From Chitinophaga pinensis (lineage in GTDB: Bacteria; Bacteroidota; Bacteroidia; SXHM01), in NCBI GenBank assembly GCA_945889235.1, contig CAMDBK010000002.1, positions 245 to 64,244 of the forward strand: a DNA stretch of 64,000 nt, in the 5' to 3' direction. Positions 2,775 through 18,782 of this stretch are shown here, in pieces (the first letter of the stretch is position 1; each line of letters starts with the position of its first letter). The notes below the pieces were generated by a model. The model was not told the DNA's origin. It ran no database searches and was given only the letters and a program-made list of their open reading frames with translations. Both the position numbers and the translations under genes were made by a program.

Positions 2775-4895
2775 TTGGAACAACTTATACAATACCTGAA
2801 AGACGGAAAGATGCAATTACTTGAAGTTCCGTTTCCGGCTCTTCAAAGCGGTTGTGTGCTGGTGCGGAATCACTATTCATTGATCAGTGCAGGCACCGAA
2901 GGTAAAACAGTGAAGGATGCACGTCTCAGTTATATTGGTAAAGCAAGAGCAAGAAAAGATGAAGTAAAAAAAGTAGTGGACGCTGCTAAAACATTTGGTT
3001 TGCTCAACACCTACAACATGGTGATGAACAAACTGGATGCACCATCCTCTCTTGGCTATAGTTGTGCGGGTGAAGTAATTGCTGTAGCAGATAATGTTTC
3101 AGGATTTCAGGTTGGCGATAGGGTAGCTTGTGGCGGAGCAGGTGCTGTTCATGCCGAAGTTGTTTCAGTGTCCGAAAATCTCTGTGTTAAAATACCCGAT
3201 GCAGTAAATGAACAAAGTGCTGCATTTACAACACTTGCTTCTATTGCTTTGCAGGGTGTTCGTCAGGCAGATTTACGTTTAGCTGAAAATTGTGTTGTAA
3301 TTGGTTTAGGCCTGGTTGGTCAGTTAACCATTCAGTTTTTAAAAGCTGCCGGAATAAAAACCATAGGCATTGACATTGACGAAAAAATGGTTGCCTTAGC
3401 CCTGCAGAGTGGTGCAGATGTTGCCATCAACCGCAACCGCGAAGATTTAGAACAAATTATTTCTGCAGAAACAAATGGCTTTGGCGCTGATGCAGTAATT
3501 ATTACTGCCGGAACATCATCAACCGACCCGGTTGATTTAGCCGGAGCTTTATGCAGGCAAAAAGGTAAAGTAATAATTGTTGGTGCGGTGCCAACAGGTT
3601 TTAAACGTCCCAACTATTTCAAAAAAGAATTAGACCTGCGCATGTCCTGCTCTTATGGTCCCGGGCGCTACGATATGGATTATGAAGAGCTTGGCTTGGA
3701 TTACCCGATTGGTTATGTGCGCTGGACAGAAAACCGCAATATGCAGGCTTATGTAGCGTTGGTAAACGACAAAAAAATAAATACAGAACCCTTAATTACT
3801 CACGTATTTGATTTTAAGGACGCAGAAAAAGCCTACGACCTTATACTAAATCGCACCGAACCATTTGTAGGTGTTTTGCTGAAATACGATGTTTCTAAAA
3901 AACTGACCAACAAGGTTTCCTTTACTTCAAAATCATTCAGCAGTTCAAAGGCAAATGTGGGGTTAATAGGTGCCGGTTCATTCGGACAAAATTTTCTTTT
4001 ACCCGCCATGAAGGGGCATTGCAATTTTACCGGGGTAGCAACTGCGCGCGCAAACAATTCCAGAAATATAGCTGATAAATACGGCTTCAACTATTGCACA
4101 GGAAATGCTGCTGAAATTTTCAGCGATACAAAAACCGATACCGTTTTCATTGCCACCCGTCATGATTCACATGCAGCGTATGTGATTGAAGGTTTGAAAA
4201 ACGGAAAAAATATTTTTGTTGAAAAACCGCTGTGCATGAACGAAGCGCAGCTCGAAGAAATAAAACAACTGTATGAAAAAAACGGTAAACACCTGATGGT
4301 CGGTTTCAACCGCAGGTTTGCTCCGTTAGTAAAAAAACTGAAAGAAACATTTAACGGTGATTATCCCAAAGCAATTAATTACCGTATCAATGCAGGCTTT
4401 ATCCCTTCCGAACATTGGATACACGATAAAACAATTGGTGGCGGCAGAATCATTGGCGAAGTTTGTCACTTTATTGACCTGTGCAGTTTTATTGCAGGCA
4501 GCAAAATAACCTCCGTTGCTGCACAAGTCTTAAATACTTCGCCAAACCTCAACGATACTGTTGCCATTAATTTGTCATTCGCAAATGGAAGCATTGCCAG
4601 CATCTCCTATTTTTCAAATGGCAACAAAAATTTATCTAAAGAATATTTGGAGGTTTTTGGCTCGGGAATAGCCACAGTATTGGATGATTTTAAAGAACTT
4701 AAAATCTACGGGCGCGAAGAGCGAAGCCATAAATCTGCGCAGGATAAAGGACACAAAACAGAAGTAGCAGAATTTTTGAAAGCAGTAAAATCGGGTGGCC
4801 CCACGCCCATACCTTTTGAACAAACGTATTCCTCTACCCTTGCTACATTCAAAGTGCTGGAGTCAATTGCATTGAATGGGGCGGCAGTGAAATAA
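2775..4895 (+). CDS. Bi-domain oxidoreductase (N-terminal MDR/Zn-alcohol-dehydrogenase fold + C-terminal Gfo/Idh/MocA NAD-binding fold)
   Basis: 706 aa. The N-half has an MDR-like GLGLVGQ Rossmann motif. The C-half has VGLIGAGSFG plus EKPL, typical of Gfo/Idh/MocA. The TTG start is supported by a family-typical N-terminus (MEQLIQYLKDGKMQLLEVPFP). Confidence 0.8.
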   Translation: MEQLIQYLKDGKMQLLEVPFPALQSGCVLVRNHYSLISAGTEGKTVKDARLSYIGKARARKDEVKKVVDAAKTFGLLNTYNMVMNKLDAPSSLGYSCAGEVIAVADNVSGFQVGDRVACGGAGAVHAEVVSVSENLCVKIPDAVNEQSAAFTTLASIALQGVRQADLRLAENCVVIGLGLVGQLTIQFLKAAGIKTIGIDIDEKMVALALQSGADVAINRNREDLEQIISAETNGFGADAVIITAGTSSTDPVDLAGALCRQKGKVIIVGAVPTGFKRPNYFKKELDLRMSCSYGPGRYDMDYEELGLDYPIGYVRWTENRNMQAYVALVNDKKINTEPLITHVFDFKDAEKAYDLILNRTEPFVGVLLKYDVSKKLTNKVSFTSKSFSSSKANVGLIGAGSFGQNFLLPAMKGHCNFTGVATARANNSRNIADKYGFNYCTGNAAEIFSDTKTDTVFIATRHDSHAAYVIEGLKNGKNIFVEKPLCMNEAQLEEIKQLYEKNGKHLMVGFNRRFAPLVKKLKETFNGDYPKAINYRINAGFIPSEHWIHDKTIGGGRIIGEVCHFIDLCSFIAGSKITSVAAQVLNTSPNLNDTVAINLSFANGSIASISYFSNGNKNLSKEYLEVFGSGIATVLDDFKELKIYGREERSHKSAQDKGHKTEVAEFLKAVKSGGPTPIPFEQTYSSTLATFKVLESIALNGAAVK

Positions 4896-4943
4896 ACAGG
4901 TAGTATAATTACCCCGCTCGCCCGAATGTTCATCACGTTGACC

Positions 4944-4981
4944 CTGAGCGGTCTCGCCTGAGGCGAGATTTTGCCGCTCAG
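4944..4981. repeat. Nested hairpin (CTGAGCGG[TCTCGCC-tga-GGCGAGA]ttttgCCGCTCAG) downstream of the oxidoreductase gene
   Basis: Base pairing checked by hand. It shares the 5' flank ..accctgagcg.. with the hairpin at 18799-18858. Confidence 0.7.
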
Positions 4982-4988
4982 AACATCA

Positions 4989-5031
4989 GCCAATTTATAA
5001 TTGGCTCCCGCTGGTCGGGATTTATAATCCC
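4989..5031. repeat. Two adjacent small hairpins sharing an ATT-TAT-AAT core
   Basis: GCCAATT-tat-AATTGGC at 4989-5005 and GGGATT-tat-AATCCC at 5017-5031. The second overlaps the left copy of the direct repeat. Confidence 0.7.
5012..5031 (+). repeat. Left copy of 20-nt direct repeat tggtcGggatttAtaatccc
   Basis: 18/20 identical to 6366-6385. Confidence 0.8.
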
Positions 5032-5071
5032 ATGAAACAATTCAGCTTCTAAGTCTTTAGCGTCCTTTTAG

Positions 5072-5385
5072 TCCTAATTTCCTAATAATCAATCAAATCA
5101 AAACTTAACGGAAACAAAATTAATAATACCATAATCAAAACTAAATCTATCATTAATAATAATAATAATAACATTTATAAAATCATAAATAACTAAATTA
5201 AAATTAGTAATACCATAAATAATAATATAATTAACAATATTAAAATTAATACTAACCATATTAATTTTAGTATCATCAAAACTAAAACTAAAACTAACTA
5301 AACTAAAAATAAGAACATCGTTAATAAAAACTTAATTAACAAAATTAAAATCAATACTAACAATAAAAAAATTACCCCTACCTTC
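5072..5385 (+). other. Almost G-free, AT-rich low-complexity tract
   Basis: Hand count gives only 6 G in 314 nt (5110, 5111, 5207, 5270, 5313, 5320). Contains (TAA)6 at 5154-5171. Degenerate internal repeats are present: 5116-5134 vs 5200-5218 at 18/19, and 5239-5256 vs 5344-5361 at 17/18. Confidence 0.9.
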
Positions 5386-5457
5386 GCCACAATTAACCCG
5401 CAAACCTCAAAAAACCCTTAGCGTCTTTGCGCCTTTGCGAGCAAAACCTAATAAAAA

Positions 5458-6381
5458 ATGCAAAACCGCGATACCAACTCCATCAACATGCTCCGCGCCA
5501 CCATCACCTGGTGCAATAACAACAGTGCAGCCACAGCAGCCATCCCCGCATTTGCCGCAGCAAAAACCACAGTCGAAAACAAACTCACCCTCATTGACGA
5601 ATACACCCAAACCGCCCTGCGCGCCACTAAAGGCACCACAACCGACACCAAAAACATCCGAGCAGCCATGCAAAACATCGCGCACAAATGCGCCAGCGCA
5701 CTCTCAGCCTATGCCGCTACCCAAAAAAACAACACCCTTCGGGCAAAAGTCAATTACTCCCTCAATGCAATGTCCGCAAAAAAGAAAGAAGAAATAGACG
5801 ACATCTGCCAAACCATCCATGACGAAGCAAATAGCAACATCGCCTCCGCAACACCCTTTGGCTACAACGCCTCCGATGTCTCCGACCTCAGCGCAGCCAT
5901 CGCCCTCTACCGCCAGAAAATGCAAGACCCTCGCCAGGCAATCATCTCCCGCGCCACAGCCCTTCTCAGCCTCCGCACACAACTCCGCGAAATAAAAACA
6001 ATTCACCTCAAACAAATAATCGACAGCATGGTCAGCACCCTGCGCCTCACCAATCCCACGTTTGTCAGCGGCTATTTCCAGGCACGCCAAATCATAGACC
6101 TCGGCTCCACCTCCGCAAAACTCCGCGGCATCATCACCTCAGCAGACGGAAGCTACCTCACCGGTGCAACCATCTCCATCCGCAAAACAGCCACCACCCA
6201 AATACTGCACGAAACAAAAACAGGCTCCGATGGCAAATTCGGCATCTACAATATCACACCCGGTGATTACGATTTTCTTTACACCCACACCACCCACCAA
6301 CCCAAAACCGAAACCAATATCCACATCAGTGCCGGAAAAGAAATCAAACGCAGAATAACACTTGTTGGTCAGGATTTGTAA
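5458..6381 (+). CDS. Hypothetical protein; helical N-region + C-terminal CarboxypepD_reg-like beta-sandwich
   Basis: 307-codon ORF in strongly skewed sequence. The C-terminal LRGIITSADGSYLTGATISIRK...TKTGSDGKFGIYNITPGDYDFLYTH...IHISAGKE fits the G-x-V-x-D..G.P..GA.V...T.TD..G.F....PG.Y pattern of carboxypeptidase-regulatory-like domains. No signal peptide is evident. Confidence 0.55.
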   Translation: MQNRDTNSINMLRATITWCNNNSAATAAIPAFAAAKTTVENKLTLIDEYTQTALRATKGTTTDTKNIRAAMQNIAHKCASALSAYAATQKNNTLRAKVNYSLNAMSAKKKEEIDDICQTIHDEANSNIASATPFGYNASDVSDLSAAIALYRQKMQDPRQAIISRATALLSLRTQLREIKTIHLKQIIDSMVSTLRLTNPTFVSGYFQARQIIDLGSTSAKLRGIITSADGSYLTGATISIRKTATTQILHETKTGSDGKFGIYNITPGDYDFLYTHTTHQPKTETNIHISAGKEIKRRITLVGQDL

Positions 6382-6389
6382 TCCCGACC
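6366..6389 (+). repeat. Right copy of the 20-nt direct repeat, forming hairpin GGTCAGGATT-tgt-AATCCCGACC
   Basis: 6366-6385 matches 5012-5031 at 18/20. The stem is 10 bp with one mismatch. It overlaps the stop codon of the 307-aa ORF. Confidence 0.8.
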
Positions 6390-6403
6390 TTTGAGAATAA
6401 ATT

Positions 6404-6411
6404 TACTTTTG
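6404..6411 (+). promoter_or_regulatory. Candidate Bacteroidota -7 box (TACTTTTG)
   Basis: Matches TAnnTTTG and ends 8 nt before the ATG at 6419. This would give a nearly leaderless mRNA. Confidence 0.35.
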
Positions 6412-6418
6412 CCCCACC

Positions 6419-7570
6419 ATGCTCCAAGCGGCACTTCAAAAACTCCAATCATACATCGAATCCGAAAACTACCGCGGTTACGACCCCTATGATGCACTTA
6501 AATCACCTCTCTTCACACTTCCCCTTTTCAAATCAAACAAGCTTTTACGTTTTGGTTTTCAGCAGTTGGTAAAACGCAGCCCGGTTAATTTAAGGCCATT
6601 GCTGCTTGTTCCCAAAGGTTGCAACCCTGTTACACTTGGGCTATGCATACAGGGCTATGCAAACCTGGCAATAGCTTACCCGGCAAAAAAAAATGAATAC
6701 ACCGTAAAAATAAATTCATTGATTGATGAATTGGAACGTCTTATTCCCTTAGGTTTCAGTGGCGCCTGCTGGGGTTACGACTTTGATTGGGAAGCGCGCT
6801 ACTCAAAAATTCCTGCTTACCAGCCCACAATAGTTGCTACGGGTATTATTACCAATGCCTTATTTACAGCCTTTAAAAAAACAGGCAACAAAAAAGCGTT
6901 GGAACTTTGTATAAGTGCAGCAGATTTTATCCTTACTGATATTCATAAAACAGTTGATAAAGACGGAACATTTTGTTTCTCCTATTCTCCGTTTGATAAG
7001 CAGGTAGTTTTTAATGCAAGCATGAAAGGTGTCCGTTTGCTTGCCCAGGTTTATTCCGAAACTAAAAATGAAAAGCTCAGAGAAGAAGCCAAAAAAGCTG
7101 TAGCATTTGTAATGAAAAACCAGCGCAACGATGGCGCATGGATATATTCAAAAAGCAACGCAGGAGGCTGGATTGACAACTACCACACGGGCTATGTTCT
7201 CGATTGTCTTGATGAATACATCCATTGCTGCAACGATAATACATTCAGTAAAAACCTCGAACGCGGCTACCAATTCTACCGCAATAATTTTTTTACAAAA
7301 GAATATATTCCTAAATTCTTCGATAAAAAAACGTTCCCTGTTGATTCTACTGCTGCGGCTCAATCAATTTTAACACTTTCGCGCTTCAAAGATTTTCAGC
7401 TTGCACAAAACGTAGCCGAATGGACCATACAAAACATGCAGGATGAAAAAGGGTATTTCTATTATCAGAAACATAAACTTTATACGAGTAAAACATCGTT
7501 TATGCGTTGGTCAAACGCCTGGCTCTTTGCAGGTTTAACAGAACTGATGGCTGCAAAATCATTGAACTGA
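6419..7570 (+). CDS. Hypothetical alpha/alpha-toroid-like protein of polysaccharide loci (function unknown)
   Basis: 383 aa, soluble, with repeated aromatic/acidic helical-hairpin pattern (WGYDFDW, DGAWIYS, NYHTGYVLD). It is tightly packed with the downstream DUF354 and wecB genes. Confidence 0.6.
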   Translation: MLQAALQKLQSYIESENYRGYDPYDALKSPLFTLPLFKSNKLLRFGFQQLVKRSPVNLRPLLLVPKGCNPVTLGLCIQGYANLAIAYPAKKNEYTVKINSLIDELERLIPLGFSGACWGYDFDWEARYSKIPAYQPTIVATGIITNALFTAFKKTGNKKALELCISAADFILTDIHKTVDKDGTFCFSYSPFDKQVVFNASMKGVRLLAQVYSETKNEKLREEAKKAVAFVMKNQRNDGAWIYSKSNAGGWIDNYHTGYVLDCLDEYIHCCNDNTFSKNLERGYQFYRNNFFTKEYIPKFFDKKTFPVDSTAAAQSILTLSRFKDFQLAQNVAEWTIQNMQDEKGYFYYQKHKLYTSKTSFMRWSNAWLFAGLTELMAAKSLN

Positions 7571-17282: not shown

Positions 17283-17453
17283 TTACCTGTTGTTAACTTC
17301 TTTGCCTTCGTATTTCAGCATTAAGCCAATCCAGATCGCTCCTGAAACTGCTCCCATAATCATTAAAGCAAGGTTCATGGTATCGCCTATTTTAGGCATA
17401 TAAGTAAAGGATGCTTCAAAAAGGTCGCGGATAGGAAATAAGATGTAGCCCAT
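17283..17453 (-). CDS. Small (56-aa) membrane protein, below the ORF-track cutoff
   Basis: My translation is MGYILFPIRDLFEASFTYMPKIGDTMNLALMIMGAVSGAIWIGLMLKYEGKEVNNR, with one clear TM helix. A -7 box lies 23 nt upstream. Confidence 0.45.
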   Translation of the reverse strand: MGYILFPIRDLFEASFTYMPKIGDTMNLALMIMGAVSGAIWIGLMLKYEGKEVNNR

Positions 17454-17475
17454 AGTTTTTTTATTTTTTGCAGCG

Positions 17476-17483
17476 CAAACCTA
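17476..17483 (-). promoter_or_regulatory. Candidate -7 box (CAAACCTA on + strand = TAGGTTTG on - strand)
   Basis: TAnnTTTG match upstream of the 56-aa ORF. Confidence 0.4.
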
Positions 17484-17507
17484 CATCATTTACATTAAAT
17501 CACAAAA

Positions 17508-18782
17508 CTATGCTGTAACTTTTTTCCTGTAAAAATAGCCCAGTGCAAGCAGCGTAAACAAAGTTCCAAATACGGCAATCAGATAACAGGCATTGGTGAA
17601 AAGACTTAGCCAACTCACTTCCGACAGAAAAAAATCTTTATAAAATAAAACGCCAACGCTGCATAAATAACCAAATGAATCGGCAACGTAAATCAGGAAA
17701 CCTGCATTGCTCACGTATTTAAAAGCGGCAATCAGTCGCTCAAACAAAATGCAGTTAAAAGGAATGTAAGCGGTGTATGCGCCAAAGCCACTCAGCATAA
17801 TCCAACCCACAGGACTCAACCATCCACTGTGAAAAGCAAATGCGCTCAATCCTGTAATCAAACAACCTGCAGCAATCACAAGATGATTGATCATCAACGC
17901 TTTCTTATTGTCTTTGATGAACATGATAAAACCCAGCAAAACCAATACGCCAAGTGTAACTGGGATTTCAGTCTGCGTAAAAATTTCAGGTTTCTTTTCA
18001 AAGCCAAGTGCATTTAAAATCTCTGCCATAAAGTTGTCGCGGAAATCACGGAACGCTGTCAGAAACATATAGGTAATCACTAGTAAAATCAAGCCCGGAG
18101 CAAATGCTTTAAAGAAACTCCAGCGCTGTTCTGAGTTCATCGGTTCGCGTTTGGTACGCAGCGTTTCATCTTCTTTTGTCGGGTCGGGAATATTACTCAG
18201 CATCCAGACAAAAAACAAAAGTGGAAGAAAAAAAACTCCGCCTGTTGCTACCGGCATCCAGAATTCTGAAACGCCCATCAGCATTAAATTTCCGCCAACT
18301 GTTTTTACAAAACCTGAAGCAAAAGCAAAGCTCGCACATAAGCCTGCGCCCATGGCTTCTGTAAATCTTCTGCCTTCCAGAAAAGAAAAAACCAAACCCC
18401 ATACCATACCAAGTGGAAGACCATTAAGAAAAAGAAAAGTAAGTTTAAAATGGTTGGGAACAACCGCAAAACCAAGCAAGGCAAGTTCTGCAATACCTAC
18501 CAGCACAATGATTCCAATTGCCCGTTTGCTCTTCCCCATTTCGGAAACAACTTTTATTCCGATGAATTTTGAGAGCATGTAACCAATCGCCTGAGAAATG
18601 ACCAAAATGGATTTGAACTTCAATCCCCACATATCACCCACATCAGCAAAACCCGCTGCCGAAAAAGGTTTTCGGAAAGCGTACATACACGAGTATGTGC
18701 AGAAAGCTGCAAGTGTTGCATATAACGGAAGCACAAAACCGTTGGAATTAGAAAGATATTTTTTGATTGGGTTTTCAGACAT
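17508..18782 (-). CDS. Polytopic membrane protein, MFS-like transporter fold (DUF5690-like)
   Basis: 424 aa with about 12 hydrophobic spans. The family assignment is from memory only. Confidence 0.5.
   Translation of the reverse strand: MSENPIKKYLSNSNGFVLPLYATLAAFCTYSCMYAFRKPFSAAGFADVGDMWGLKFKSILVISQAIGYMLSKFIGIKVVSEMGKSKRAIGIIVLVGIAELALLGFAVVPNHFKLTFLFLNGLPLGMVWGLVFSFLEGRRFTEAMGAGLCASFAFASGFVKTVGGNLMLMGVSEFWMPVATGGVFFLPLLFFVWMLSNIPDPTKEDETLRTKREPMNSEQRWSFFKAFAPGLILLVITYMFLTAFRDFRDNFMAEILNALGFEKKPEIFTQTEIPVTLGVLVLLGFIMFIKDNKKALMINHLVIAAGCLITGLSAFAFHSGWLSPVGWIMLSGFGAYTAYIPFNCILFERLIAAFKYVSNAGFLIYVADSFGYLCSVGVLFYKDFFLSEVSWLSLFTNACYLIAVFGTLFTLLALGYFYRKKVTA

Follow-up and report, generated by a model that had tools for sequence, protein, structure and literature searches.

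How does a chromosomal polysaccharide locus come to hold about 1.5 kb of DNA whose plus strand is crowded with A and C, bracketed by two copies of a 20-nt sequence, and is such a segment foreign to its surroundings? The original prediction for this locus described a cassette-like horizontal insertion, and its account of the composition was accurate. In the window, by which is meant the whole 64-kb stretch of DNA analysed here, the plus strand at 5040-6540 contains A 557, C 462, T 302 and G 180 (A+C = 0.68), and sliding windows of 500 nt reach an A+C peak of 0.714 against a window-wide mean of 0.505 (sd 0.041, thus ~5 sd). The hand counts given earlier for 5461-5520, 5941-6000 and 6541-6600 were exact on recount, and the onset of the skew near 5040 is confirmed, as is its tail of ~120 nt in the next coding sequence, where the first 122 nt (6419-6540) still have only 9.8% G. 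The leader (5040-5457) has a mere 4.8% G, and the coding sequence that follows, named X here (5458-6381), is composed of C 36, A 33, G 15.6 and T 15.3%; the C/G ratios are 3.75 and 2.3, respectively. Avoidance of T is confined to coding sequence, the leader not being T-poor. The bias in X is greatest at codon third positions (AC3 0.82, C3 0.56, G3 0.06, vs AC1 0.62 and AC2 0.63), with C 0.66, A 0.23, T 0.07 and G 0.04 at 4-fold sites. Among the ORFs of at least 150 aa in the 64 kb, X alone has a third-position bias of this kind; the others have AC3 of 0.41-0.58 and C3 of 0.11-0.37, or 0.11-0.28 without three short ORFs nested in longer genes. The second-ranked A+C region (17.4-18.3 kb, 0.61) is complementary to a T-rich gene for a membrane protein on the minus strand.

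The skewed segment has a definite anatomy (Table 1) and its flanks are chromosomal polysaccharide genes. No integrase, transposase or Rep gene lies inside, as the original prediction stated, and the only other ORF in the module is a 53-aa minus-strand frame within the low-complexity array. Residues 222-302 of X match Pfam PF13620 CarboxypepD_reg (44.6 bits vs a cut-off of 32.3), and this C-terminal domain is predicted to form a 7-strand beta sandwich, the model giving a target-normalised TM-score of 0.84 to 5aq0. The PF13620 match spans the C-terminal quarter of X alone and is uninformative on function. The N-terminal domain has no Pfam, NCBIfam or PHROG match, a PDB profile search with residues 1-215 returned nothing significant, and the best E-value from Foldseek with a model of pLDDT 82 was 0.73. 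Foldseek was run with two AlphaFold models, both against the PDB and the full-length one also against BFVD. No signal peptide is evident in X. The Pec_lyase-like gene that follows is not a fusion, since it is homologous along its full length to its counterpart in a related locus (L006).

Table 1. Coordinates of the module and its borders in the 64-kb window.
Feature	Position	Strand	Description
Nested strong hairpin	4942..4982	+	After oxidoreductase stop, 5' of module; CTGAGCGG-TCTCGCC-tga-GGCGAGA-ttttg-CCGCTCAG; terminator- or insulator-like
Left 20-mer copy	5012..5031	+	6-bp palindrome GGGATT-tat-AATCCC kept
Leader, 5' part	5040..5102	+	Boxes TAAGTCT (5050-5056) and TTTTAGTCC (5066-5074) common to closest relatives; candidate promoter/leader start
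21-nt array	5103..5375	+	~13 degenerate units with 42/63-nt super-periods; A 54%, T 28%, C 15%, G 2%
Post-array box	5377..5392	+	CCTACCTTCGCCACAA; identical in L009, 1 mismatch each in L004 and L011, more diverged in L006
Short tandem motif	5421..5439	+	GCGTCTTT-GCGCCTTT-GCG, just 5' of A-rich start region
Gene X	5458..6381	+	307 aa; ~215-aa all-helical N-terminal domain and C-terminal transthyretin-like CarboxypepD_reg
Right 20-mer copy, extended	6366..6389	+	Near-perfect 10-bp hairpin GGTCAGGATT-tgt-AATCCCGACC; putative terminator/insulator and rearrangement junction
Next gene, first ~120 nt	6419..6540	+	383 aa, Pec_lyase-like; residual G depletion

The leader is dominated by the array, whose autocorrelation peaks at 0.57-0.60 at lags of 21, 42 and 63 against a mean of 0.40; TRF reports the same three periods and no other notable tandem repeat in 64 kb. 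The first unit retains the family core ACGGAAAC (GGAAAC at 5110-5115), and later units read TTAACA(g)AA..AAAAT. The boxes of the 5' leader were defined by alignment of five leaders, and one of them, TTTTAGTC, recurs in L056 between the array and the ATG. In L004 and L006, the CTTTGCG repeats of the short tandem motif lie 3' of the X stop, before Wzi. The predicted leader RNA would be C-rich, G-poor and weakly folded (-25.7 kcal/mol over 381 nt), a composition like that of a candidate rut leader, and the leader of another locus, L045, folds no better than its shuffles (z +0.75). A sigma-70 promoter scan stayed at chance level, with one 10/12 match overlapping the left 20-mer, and the Bacteroidetes -7 box TAnnTTTG has no consistent plus-strand position; its minus-strand matches inside A-rich arrays are probably compositional. 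Rfam gave nothing relevant over 4600-6900 at E<=1, the only hit being a minus-strand PhrS match (15.8 vs a gathering score of 37 bits, E 0.46), and no match at gathering score in five related loci. A coding heptad-repeat array was rejected, the window array having stops in every plus-strand frame (19, 1 and 3) and several other family arrays having them in all six frames; where frames are open elsewhere, they agree with chance expectation for repeated 21-mers and imply unrelated peptides. A CRISPR array was likewise rejected, the units being contiguous and without spacers.

Homologues of X number 37 by single-sequence search and 86 by profile search (~90 clusters), all from Bacteroidota MAGs or metagenomes and none annotated, also after the profile search, often with several paralogues per genome and up to 4-5 in one MAG. 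In the closest relatives the module sits in the same kind of polysaccharide locus, adjoining Wzi and Bac_transf, and relatives at 57-70% X protein identity share the gene, the leader architecture, the skew and homologous loci, which argues that the bias has been maintained in place over long times. In five loci (L004, L006, L009, L011 and L050) AC3 of X is 0.85-0.93, each with an AT-rich, G-poor leader. Arrays whose period is 21 or a multiple of it occur in 34/37 loci of the genomes and the first set, and in the majority of those metagenome loci that extend far enough upstream (~60 loci overall); in nearly all examined loci this 21/42/63-nt array lies 50-600 nt upstream of X. Genes judged by eye to encode XRE-, LuxR- and AraC-like HTH proteins adjoin the arrays in some paralogous loci; the window has no such gene. 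Comparison of these loci shows that the stretch 5040-6390, made up of the G-poor leader with its array, the conserved post-array box, an A/C-rich linker and X, belongs to an uncharacterised Bacteroidota family as a resident module inherited vertically, and its A+C excess is a family trait rather than the scar of a foreign origin. A full-text literature search found no description of the module or of a strand bias that tracks an array.

The 20-mer TGGTCRGGATTTRTAATCCC, reported in the original prediction at 5012 and 6366, is indeed present in two copies (5012-5031 and 6366-6385) and in no others with up to 3 mismatches in the 64 kb, nor in any of 100 shuffles. Folding of both copies bears out a near-complete hairpin on the right (GGTC.GGATT-tgt-AATCC.GACC) and a truncated one on the left; the predicted fold of 4896-5102, which takes in the nested hairpin at 4942-4982, reaches -53.4 kcal/mol. 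The left compositional edge is sharp, the skew starting ~10 nt 3' of the left copy. The right copy supplies the final five codons and the stop of X, so that the protein ends in ...ITLVGQDL in the window and in ...ITLIPL in relatives; the hairpin thus overlaps the 3' end of X, as attC might in an integron cassette. Relatives have neither flanking repeats like the 20-mer pair nor the hairpin. The repeat is specific to the window lineage and probably marks a rearrangement inside the locus, which would have put the module between the oxidoreductase and Pec_lyase-like genes, and the two hairpin copies bracket, and probably insulate, the module. At the epimerase/Wzi junction of the window no relic of the module was detected, the Wzi start motif alone being present. 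Both 120-nt junctions are identical across the ENA assemblies ERZ27280297, ERZ27280223 and ERZ27280328, and the right junction is present too in the Logan assembly ERR5863107. The whole 1645-nt module is the same in ERZ27280297 and ERZ27280223 except for a TAA indel in the array; strain polymorphism across assemblies amounts to this indel and one SNP outside the module, too little to yield a mutation spectrum.

The sign of the bias is not constant in the family. AC3 of X runs from 0.93 to 0.17, against 0.41-0.56 in ordinary genes, and distant family members have weaker or reversed skew. GGAAAC-type arrays accompany A+C-rich X genes, and inverted GTTTCC-type arrays accompany G+T-rich ones. Array, linker and flanks take the same sign as X across ~70 loci, and AC3 of X correlates with the A+C content of the array, the linker and both 400-nt flanks (Spearman 0.75-0.83, n=32-34). 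The inversion itself stands out from a composition-preserving null, with a mean z of ~2 (maximum 4-6.6) for the reverse complement and ~0.2 for the forward orientation. Two paralogues of a single MAG, Bin_39, are opposite (AC3 0.93 in L009 and 0.35 in L022), and among sister lineages L056 has an inverted array and AC3 of 0.40 while L079 and L027 have forward arrays and AC3 of 0.62 and 0.56, a second switch. When forward and inverted arrays of a single genome were compared by eye for pairing, they matched over only ~9 nt. The 4-fold spectra are mirror images between the signs (C.73, A.23 vs G.6, T.2), and first and second codon positions, hence amino-acid content, are shifted as well. The G+T-rich clade has a conserved TGGAAT-N(~13)-GCATCT box between the array and the ATG, and its array sense RNA is strongly structured (z -4.7 in L022). 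Array units match at just 60-70% in the loci of strongest skew, the window among them, and the GG of the core is lost there beyond the first unit or units, being replaced by AG or AA. Such decay suggests that some pressure, of which mutation bias would be an example, overrides the function of the array. The sign of the bias thus appears to track array orientation through at least 2 apparent switches, counted on an NJ tree of a short alignment; since the phylogeny is largely two clades, the coupling of the polarities rests on ~2-3 independent switches.

Neighbouring genes on the same strand share the bias of X gene by gene, in steps rather than smoothly with distance. The AC3 series in L004 runs 0.53, 0.91 for X, ~0.78 for Wzi over 1.7 kb, ~0.63, 0.58 and 0.52; the biased neighbours are the epimerase in L006 and Wzi in L004, L009 and L011. 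Where the leader directly adjoins the genes 5' of it, with no hairpin in between (L006, L009), those genes are biased; with hairpins in between (the window, L004), they are not. There is an exception in L046, whose same-strand downstream gene is unbiased though no strong hairpin is evident in between, and in the G+T-rich clade spill-over into neighbours is nil. In L006, plus-strand AC3 is slightly elevated (0.60 vs ~0.53) in a gene encoded on the minus strand at a distance of 1.9-4 kb, which weakly favours an effect on the DNA strand over one on the transcript. Third positions of flanking genes provided no usable background skew for a test of replication direction. Genes unrelated to the module are unbiased, among them the LeuRS and TonB-dependent receptor genes of the window and the ribosomal protein and EF-G genes of a related genome. 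Within every lineage, array, linker, X and co-oriented neighbours have a common polarity, A+C-rich or G+T-rich, which matches the orientation of the array core.

What, then, maintains the bias? The reading that is tentatively preferred, at somewhat short of an even chance, is a resident module whose transcription unit is under selection for its base composition; such selection is considered the likeliest cause, ahead of ancestry and of mutation pressure. The sense RNA of the window lineage would be kept nearly free of G and, at synonymous sites, of U. Being C-rich and G-poor over its whole length, it could then pair neither with itself nor with its 300-nt A-rich repeat leader. Co-transcribed genes would be drawn to the same composition and genes separated by hairpins would not. 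The array would be a putative array of protein-binding sites that works in either orientation, a view suggested by the 21-bp phasing, equal to two helical turns, and by the regulators beside paralogous arrays. Plain mutation pressure is countered by equilibrium compositions that are sharply different, with A at.54, T at.28, C at.15 and G at.02 in the non-coding array, as against C at.66-.75, A at.21-.27, T at.02-.07 and G at.00-.04 in 4-fold positions. The stepwise bias of neighbours and its dependence on hairpins also speak against it. Ordinary expression-linked codon bias is disfavoured by the unbiased ribosomal, EF-G, LeuRS and TonB genes and by opposite paralogues in one MAG. In the G+T-rich clade the array may lie outside the mRNA, given the box between it and the ATG, and selection on the transcript would then leave the shared polarity unexplained; the structured array sense RNA of L022 means that "unstructured RNA" is not a family-wide property.

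A possible, if rather doubtful, rival holds that the array starts a strand-specific mutational process, via a bound protein, a persistent R-loop or a replication/transcription slow zone. The strand reading TTTnGTTTCC would be exposed or error-prone for ~1-3 kb and drift to G+T, and its complement to A+C, so that the strand encoding X depends only on array orientation. Such a process would be a bacterial counterpart of mitochondrial H/L asymmetry or of immunoglobulin switch regions, whose tandem repeats are prone to R-loops. It would account for a polarity that follows the array rather than the coding strand, for both signs with their mirror-image 4-fold spectra, for the shift at codon positions 1 and 2 and for the decay of GG to AG or AA. 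It would also fit a bias that extends to non-coding parts and to any genes that happen to adjoin, including 120 nt in the window and, slightly, the minus-strand neighbour in L006. However, the C/T ratio is 0.5 in the non-coding array and 10-30 at 4-fold sites, neighbours form per-gene plateaus with no bias beyond hairpins, and the G+T-rich clade has zero spill-over. The A+C-rich loci are opposite in sign to what non-template exposure by sense transcription would give, models of the origin or break-resection type are excluded because the sign does not change across the array, and spontaneous deamination of ssDNA should yield T > G on the exposed strand, whereas the 4-fold sites there are dominated by G. 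It is more speculative, and judged unlikely, that the 21-bp array is the control site of an undescribed strand-directed DNA process that imposes a hypermutation-like bias on one strand. It might take the form of targeted deamination, of an R-loop that is stabilised or of exposed ssDNA, and would rewrite the synonymous sites of X and its neighbours to as much as 93% A+C or 83% G+T, array orientation deciding between the two. Codon-level translational selection on X and its operon partners, with leader composition independent, is improbable. One clade would prefer codons ending in C or A and the other codons ending in G or T, so that translation is controlled separately for each paralogue through the tRNA pool or its modification state, and the A-rich, G-poor leader would extend the usual Bacteroidota preference for an unstructured, SD-less 5' UTR. 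The excess at third positions agrees with this, as do plateaus that resemble expression-graded codon bias and a shunning of T in coding sequence alone. Yet the same tRNAs decode NNC and NNU, and a share of 0.5-0.6 for 4-fold codons ending in G matches no known optimal-codon pattern when the genome is AT-rich. A related genome has no such bias in EF-G or its ribosomal protein genes, array, linker and flanks share the sign of X, and positions 1 and 2 also shift.

The readings that invoke an outside source or a faulty assembly fare worse. A recent cassette-like horizontal insertion, with a composition acquired in ssDNA or rolling-circle life and the 20-mer as a duplicated target hairpin, would explain the unique direct repeat and the sharp left boundary, and is very improbable. 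An "empty" site does exist in one relative, L006, where the oxidoreductase and Pec_lyase-like genes overlap by 4 nt with nothing between, but the module is present in that locus, before Wzi instead. What survives of the original prediction is a discrete unit whose position in the locus varies between relatives; a recent horizontal import does not, given the same skew in homologous loci at 57-70% identity, a multi-copy chromosomal family with members of opposite bias, and resident neighbours that take on the bias. Its further suggestion of an ssDNA or rolling-circle source fails on the same orthologues and on the absence of Rep, integrase, transposase, PHROG match, Rfam match and any nick-site-like element. 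An integrated ssDNA phage or replicon was rejected, X being the only real ORF, without a phage-family match and between chromosomal flanks, as was a transposon or IS, there being no transposase and no terminal inverted repeats and the ends being 20-nt direct repeats that are themselves hairpins. An integron cassette was rejected too: intI and a cassette array are both absent, the module has its own 400-nt leader, and relatives are without the hairpin. End repeats could in principle mislead an assembler, but a sequencing artefact or an assembly chimera at the repeat, the latter being the other explanation offered originally, is scarcely credible and is excluded by junctions that recur unchanged in three to four assemblies made independently and by orthologous modules in dozens of unrelated ones.

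Strong local strand asymmetry is usually put down to replication, transcription or foreign origin, none of which fits simply here. If selection is responsible, the nucleotide content of a whole transcript is tuned, possibly for Rho, RNase or the avoidance of pairing, in bacteria without Shine-Dalgarno initiation, and selection of such strength would reshape protein sequences. If mutation is responsible, bacteria would have a site-directed, strand-specific mutational process. In either case an array, one gene and a hairpin form a compact, testable system, and the locus is a warning that local compositional anomalies in metagenome-assembled genomes are not automatically horizontal transfer.

The module resembles the heavy/light-strand asymmetry of mitochondria and the replication skew of bacteria in having a G+T-rich and an A+C-rich strand, with third positions and amino acids following the strand and G the rarest 4-fold base on the A+C strand. 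Unlike these, its domain covers 1.5-6 kb in an unskewed chromosome and is centred on one gene family, both signs occur in one genome, and it tracks a local array rather than a replication origin. By analogy, rut regions and the leaders of polysaccharide operons (JUMPStart/ops-RfaH; Bacteroides UpxY) may offer a parallel, being long untranslated leaders in polysaccharide loci as here. Rho loads on poorly structured RNA in which C exceeds G, and the module RNA would be of this kind, strongly C>G and poorly structured with the downstream operon genes affected. A rut site is ~80 nt, whereas the C>G region of the module covers ~1.5 kb including a translated gene, and the sister clade is G>C; no ops element or UpxY/NusG-like gene was seen beside the module. 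Iteron- and centromere-like arrays (R6K, 7x22 bp; F sopC, 12x43 bp) and LytTR sites (21-bp spacing) are head-to-tail and helically phased, as are module units of 21 bp or doublets of 42 bp, equal to two helical turns, in ~13-17 copies, homogenised within arrays and divergent between them, with DNA-binding genes beside some. Unlike iterons, the array has no Rep or Par genes and always lies 50-600 nt upstream of one gene family, and unlike operators, the window units are too decayed (G 2%) to look specific. Immunoglobulin class-switch regions, as an analogy only, also combine tandem repeats with strong strand asymmetry; there a transcription-dependent R-loop exposes one strand to deamination, whereas the window lineage has its G-rich strand as template. 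The nearest published item is the TAACTGA-type heptamer direct repeats of 5' regions (PMC4679880), found in Beggiatoaceae, Cyanobacteria and a few Bacteroidetes and suggested to bind a post-transcriptional regulator. These are non-coding tandem direct repeats 5' of start codons, with some long arrays in Bacteroidetes, like the module; they have a fixed 7-nt unit before many unrelated genes (PMC4679880), whereas the module combines a 21-nt unit and a GGAAAC core with one gene family and a strand skew.

Among ORFs of at least 150 aa in the 64 kb, gene X alone is extreme at third codon positions (A+C share, AC3, 0.82; C 0.56, G 0.06); the others lie at 0.41-0.58, among them those for type IX secretion cargo, LeuRS and a TonB-dependent receptor. 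Between 5040 and 6540 the plus strand holds 557 A, 462 C, 302 T and 180 G, with a GC skew of about -0.4 and an AT skew of +0.23 to +0.50. The A+C-rich stretch of the original prediction is borne out by a peak of 0.714 in 500-nt windows against a window-wide mean of 0.505 (sd 0.041), and its three hand base counts all proved exact on recount. The runner-up stretch is the complement of a T-rich gene and is unrelated to the skew of the module, i.e. the G-poor repeat leader, the post-array box and X.

Coordinates of features in the window and in loci of X homologues from other genomes or metagenomes (L numbers)
Locus	Position	Strand	Feature
Window	4942-4982		Strong hairpin upstream of the leader
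Window	5001-5028		Sigma-70-like match, 10/12 (TTGGCT-16-TATAAT)
Window	5012-5031		Left 20-mer copy, strong hairpin upstream of the leader
Window	5103-5375		Repeat array
Window	5154		(TAA)n tract of the array
Window	5230-5275		15-bp AT-only hairpin inside the array, AAUAUUAAAAUUAAUA...UAUUAAUUUUAGUAU
Window	5377-5392		Post-array box, conserved, CCTACCTTCGCCACAA
Window	5421-5439		Short tandem CTTTGCG-type motifs
Window	5458-6381	+	X, 307 aa
Window	6366-6385		Right 20-mer copy
Window	9846		Probable GTG start of the Wzi-like gene (GTGAAAAAACT), rather than ATG 9971
Window	17400-18300	+	Runner-up A+C-rich stretch, 0.61-0.62
Window	17508-18782	-	T-rich gene, DUF5690 in relatives
L004	10919-10979		CTTTGCG-type motifs
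L006	downstream of 10930		CTTTGCG-type motifs
L045	9196-9909		Putative DNA-binding protein gene
L040	4125-4487		Putative DNA-binding protein gene
L015	1815-2072		Putative DNA-binding protein gene
L020	9052-9402		Putative DNA-binding protein gene

X is a real gene. A CarboxypepD_reg match covers residues 222-302, and the AlphaFold model (29 homologues, pLDDT 84) pairs a helical N-domain of ~215 aa with a C-terminal seven-strand sandwich that resembles transthyretin-like domains by structure match. The N-domain matches nothing in Pfam, NCBIfam, PHROGs or PDB sequences and, modelled alone (pLDDT 82), no PDB structure (best E-value 0.73). A single-sequence search yields 37 homologues and a profile search 86, every one from Bacteroidota MAGs or metagenomes, with up to four or five paralogues per MAG and no named protein among them. 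One (L032, CAMTUN010000010.1, AC3 0.73) lies at a contig end; the contig has 61% G+C and was assigned to an "uncultured beta proteobacterium" bin, which probably reflects chimeric assembly or misbinning, or else a rare transfer.

The sequence upstream of X is not random AT-rich spacer. Identity rises to 0.57-0.60 at lags of 21, 42 and 63 nt (mean 0.40), TRF reports the same periods as the sole notable tandem repeat in the window, and the 21-nt register holds ~13 degenerate units, beginning with ACTTAACGGAAACAAAATTAA. Almost all loci examined, from genomes and metagenomes alike, have a 21-nt-periodic array at a distance of 50-600 nt upstream of X; periods are 21, 42, 63 or 84 and units, usually 10-17, are alike within one array and unlike between arrays, most sharing a core like (T/C)GGAAAC and then an A-rich stretch. 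A coding array was ruled out by stops in all frames in many cases and by unrelated peptides from the open frames, and the module has no Rfam match. The window leader folds better than its shuffles (z -2.97), albeit with very weak overall energy, because of the AT-only hairpin. The (TAA)n tract is longer by one TAA in a single one of the three ENA assemblies (loci: window, L003); the samples do not otherwise differ within the module, so array length is polymorphic in the population.

Other elements were seen around the module. The -10 hexamer of the sigma-70-like match falls within the loop formed by the left 20-mer copy; such matches occur at chance level in the region, and their consensus differs from the one Bacteroidota use. 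The CTTTGCG-type motifs lie just 5' of the X start codon in the window and 3' of the X stop, before Wzi, in L004 and L006, a place occupied by ATCTGTG-type repeats in L009 and L011; these repeats may act in translation or attenuation as a movable element ahead of a start codon. The motif CCGTGAAAAAACT is also found 5' of Wzi in L004, L006 and L009, and the Wzi-like protein of the window would have a signal-peptide-like N-terminus from its probable GTG start. Many moderately skewed paralogous loci (the four in the table, L012-L014, L017 and L041) have a putative small DNA-binding protein gene directly 5' of the array, by eye XRE-like, LuxR/GerE-like, a conserved 115-aa protein or the end of an AraC-type gene; the L012-L014 products have 115-121 aa, and the XRE-like ORF of L045 extends into the array. 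No such gene lies beside the array in the window.

The segment had been proposed as a foreign cassette, but it is a conserved, resident module of the family: in the closest relatives (57-70% identity) X lies in a polysaccharide locus of the same kind, immediately ahead of Wzi, Bac_transf and purD, with the same ~350-nt G-poor AT-rich leader, A+C-rich X and bias into the next gene. The predicted 20-mer pair, TGGTCRGGATTTRTAATCCC, does exist and is unique, with no further copy in 64 kb at three mismatches and none in shuffles; as had been described, the right copy forms a near-perfect hairpin and the left one a truncated hairpin. The right copy gives X its C-terminus (...ITLVGQDL-stop versus ...ITLIPL-stop in the family), and no repeat of this type brackets the module in relatives. 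Gene order in the window is oxidoreductase, module, Pec_lyase-like, DUF354, epimerase, Wzi; L006 has the module after the epimerase and ahead of Wzi, and its oxidoreductase and Pec_lyase-like genes overlap by 4 nt. This junction is empty in a locus that houses the module elsewhere. We infer a rearrangement specific to this lineage, with a hairpin copy at either junction; Pfam matches reveal no recombinase gene in the 10 kb to each side. The suggested assembly chimera is ruled out, its probability being negligible: three ENA assemblies agree exactly at the two junctions, and the right-hand one recurs in a Logan assembly.

The bias has persisted over long times, is local, occurs with both signs and follows array orientation. 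Over about 70 loci the AC3 of X ranges between 0.17 (L042) and 0.93 (L009), with ordinary genes of these loci at 0.41-0.56. At 4-fold sites the A+C-rich extreme has C 0.64-0.75, A 0.21-0.27, T 0.02-0.07 and G 0.00-0.04, and the G+T-rich extreme, roughly its complement, C 0.03-0.09, A 0.12-0.20, T 0.14-0.28 and G 0.53-0.61. AC3 of X correlates with the A+C of array, linker and both 400-nt flanks (Spearman 0.75-0.83), and GGAAAC-type arrays accompany A+C-rich loci and their reverse complement G+T-rich loci (for instance L045, CGGGCTGGAAACACAAA, and L022, whose reverse complement reads CTCGGCTGGAAACCAAAA). The inversion holds against a column-shuffle null that preserves composition: reverse-complement comparisons reached a mean z of about 2 and a maximum of 4-6.6 (9/13 arrays), versus about 0.2 in forward orientation. 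An NJ tree has A+C-rich distant outgroups and mostly two clades, with exceptions: L056 (inverted array TTTTCGTTTCCAAAG, AC3 0.40) is sister to L079 and L027 (array TTGGAAACCAAAA, AC3 0.62 and 0.56), and L035 forms a separate branch. The apparent switches behind this coupling thus number at least two, but not many. In the G+T-rich clade a conserved TGGAAT-N(~13)-GCATCT box, ECF-sigma promoter-like by eye, lies 50-95 nt 5' of the X start (L019, L021, L022, L026, L028, L034, L037, L042), followed by a small hairpin and an A-rich start region.

Neighbouring genes in A+C-rich polysaccharide loci are biased stepwise by gene, not smoothly with distance. In L004 the upstream T9SS gene stays at AC3 0.53 even in its last 240 nt, and values downstream run from 0.91 in X through 0.70-0.84 over 1.7 kb of Wzi and about 0.63 in Bac_transf to 0.58 and 0.52. 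Upstream genes are unbiased behind strong hairpins (window, L004) and biased where no hairpin precedes the leader, as in L006 (epimerase, 0.82-0.86; a 52-nt gap of zero folding energy) and L009 (about 0.80). Neighbours in the window are essentially unbiased except for ~120 nt of the next gene, an extension already predicted and now confirmed, that gene being homologous throughout to its L006 counterpart. One minus-strand gene of L006 has a slightly raised plus-strand AC3 (0.60 versus about 0.53), and G+T-rich loci show no spill-over into neighbours.

Ordinary expression-linked codon bias was ruled out by unbiased ribosomal protein and EF-G genes in a related genome, and is also countered by opposite signs among paralogues of one MAG; codon-level selection alone is an improbable cause. 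Selection acting on transcription-unit composition is tentatively favoured, at slightly less than even odds. RNA made of A and C is a textbook Rho substrate, and an A+C-only RNA would be unable to pair with itself or with the 300-nt A-rich repeat leader. This selection is supported by the plateaus of bias per gene, by its ending at hairpins, by the weak folding of the window and L045 leaders, and by the fact that array (A.54, T.28, C.15) and synonymous sites (C.7, A.23, T.05) have only G avoidance in common. Against it, the TGGAAT-N13-GCATCT box between array and ATG suggests that in the G+T-rich clade the array may lie 5' of the promoter, the sense RNA of that clade's array is strongly structured, and the array core has decayed (GG to AG or AA) in those loci that are most biased.

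The main rival, an array-initiated, strand-specific mutational process, gives the most natural account of that decay, of the polarity coupling with its mirror-image spectra and of non-coding involvement, although it fits poorly with the per-gene plateaus, the composition mismatch, the sign with respect to sense transcription and the lack of spill-over in one clade, and is rather unlikely. Descent of the segment from a single-stranded DNA element, originally offered as one hypothesis for the strand bias, is very improbable for a resident module whose bias is bipolar.

A full-text literature search found no description of this module combination; phylogenetic replication of the phenomenon is thin. 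Its nearest analogies are mitochondrial H/L strand asymmetry, the rut-like, C>G leaders of polysaccharide operons and, for the array, iteron or sopC-type phased repeats and the TAACTGA heptamer repeats that occur upstream of genes (PMC4679880); immunoglobulin switch regions are a mechanistic analogy only. None of these systems combines what defines the module: a single gene family, an obligatory 21-nt phased array upstream of it, and a strand-composition domain on the kilobase scale whose sign, of either kind, follows array orientation.
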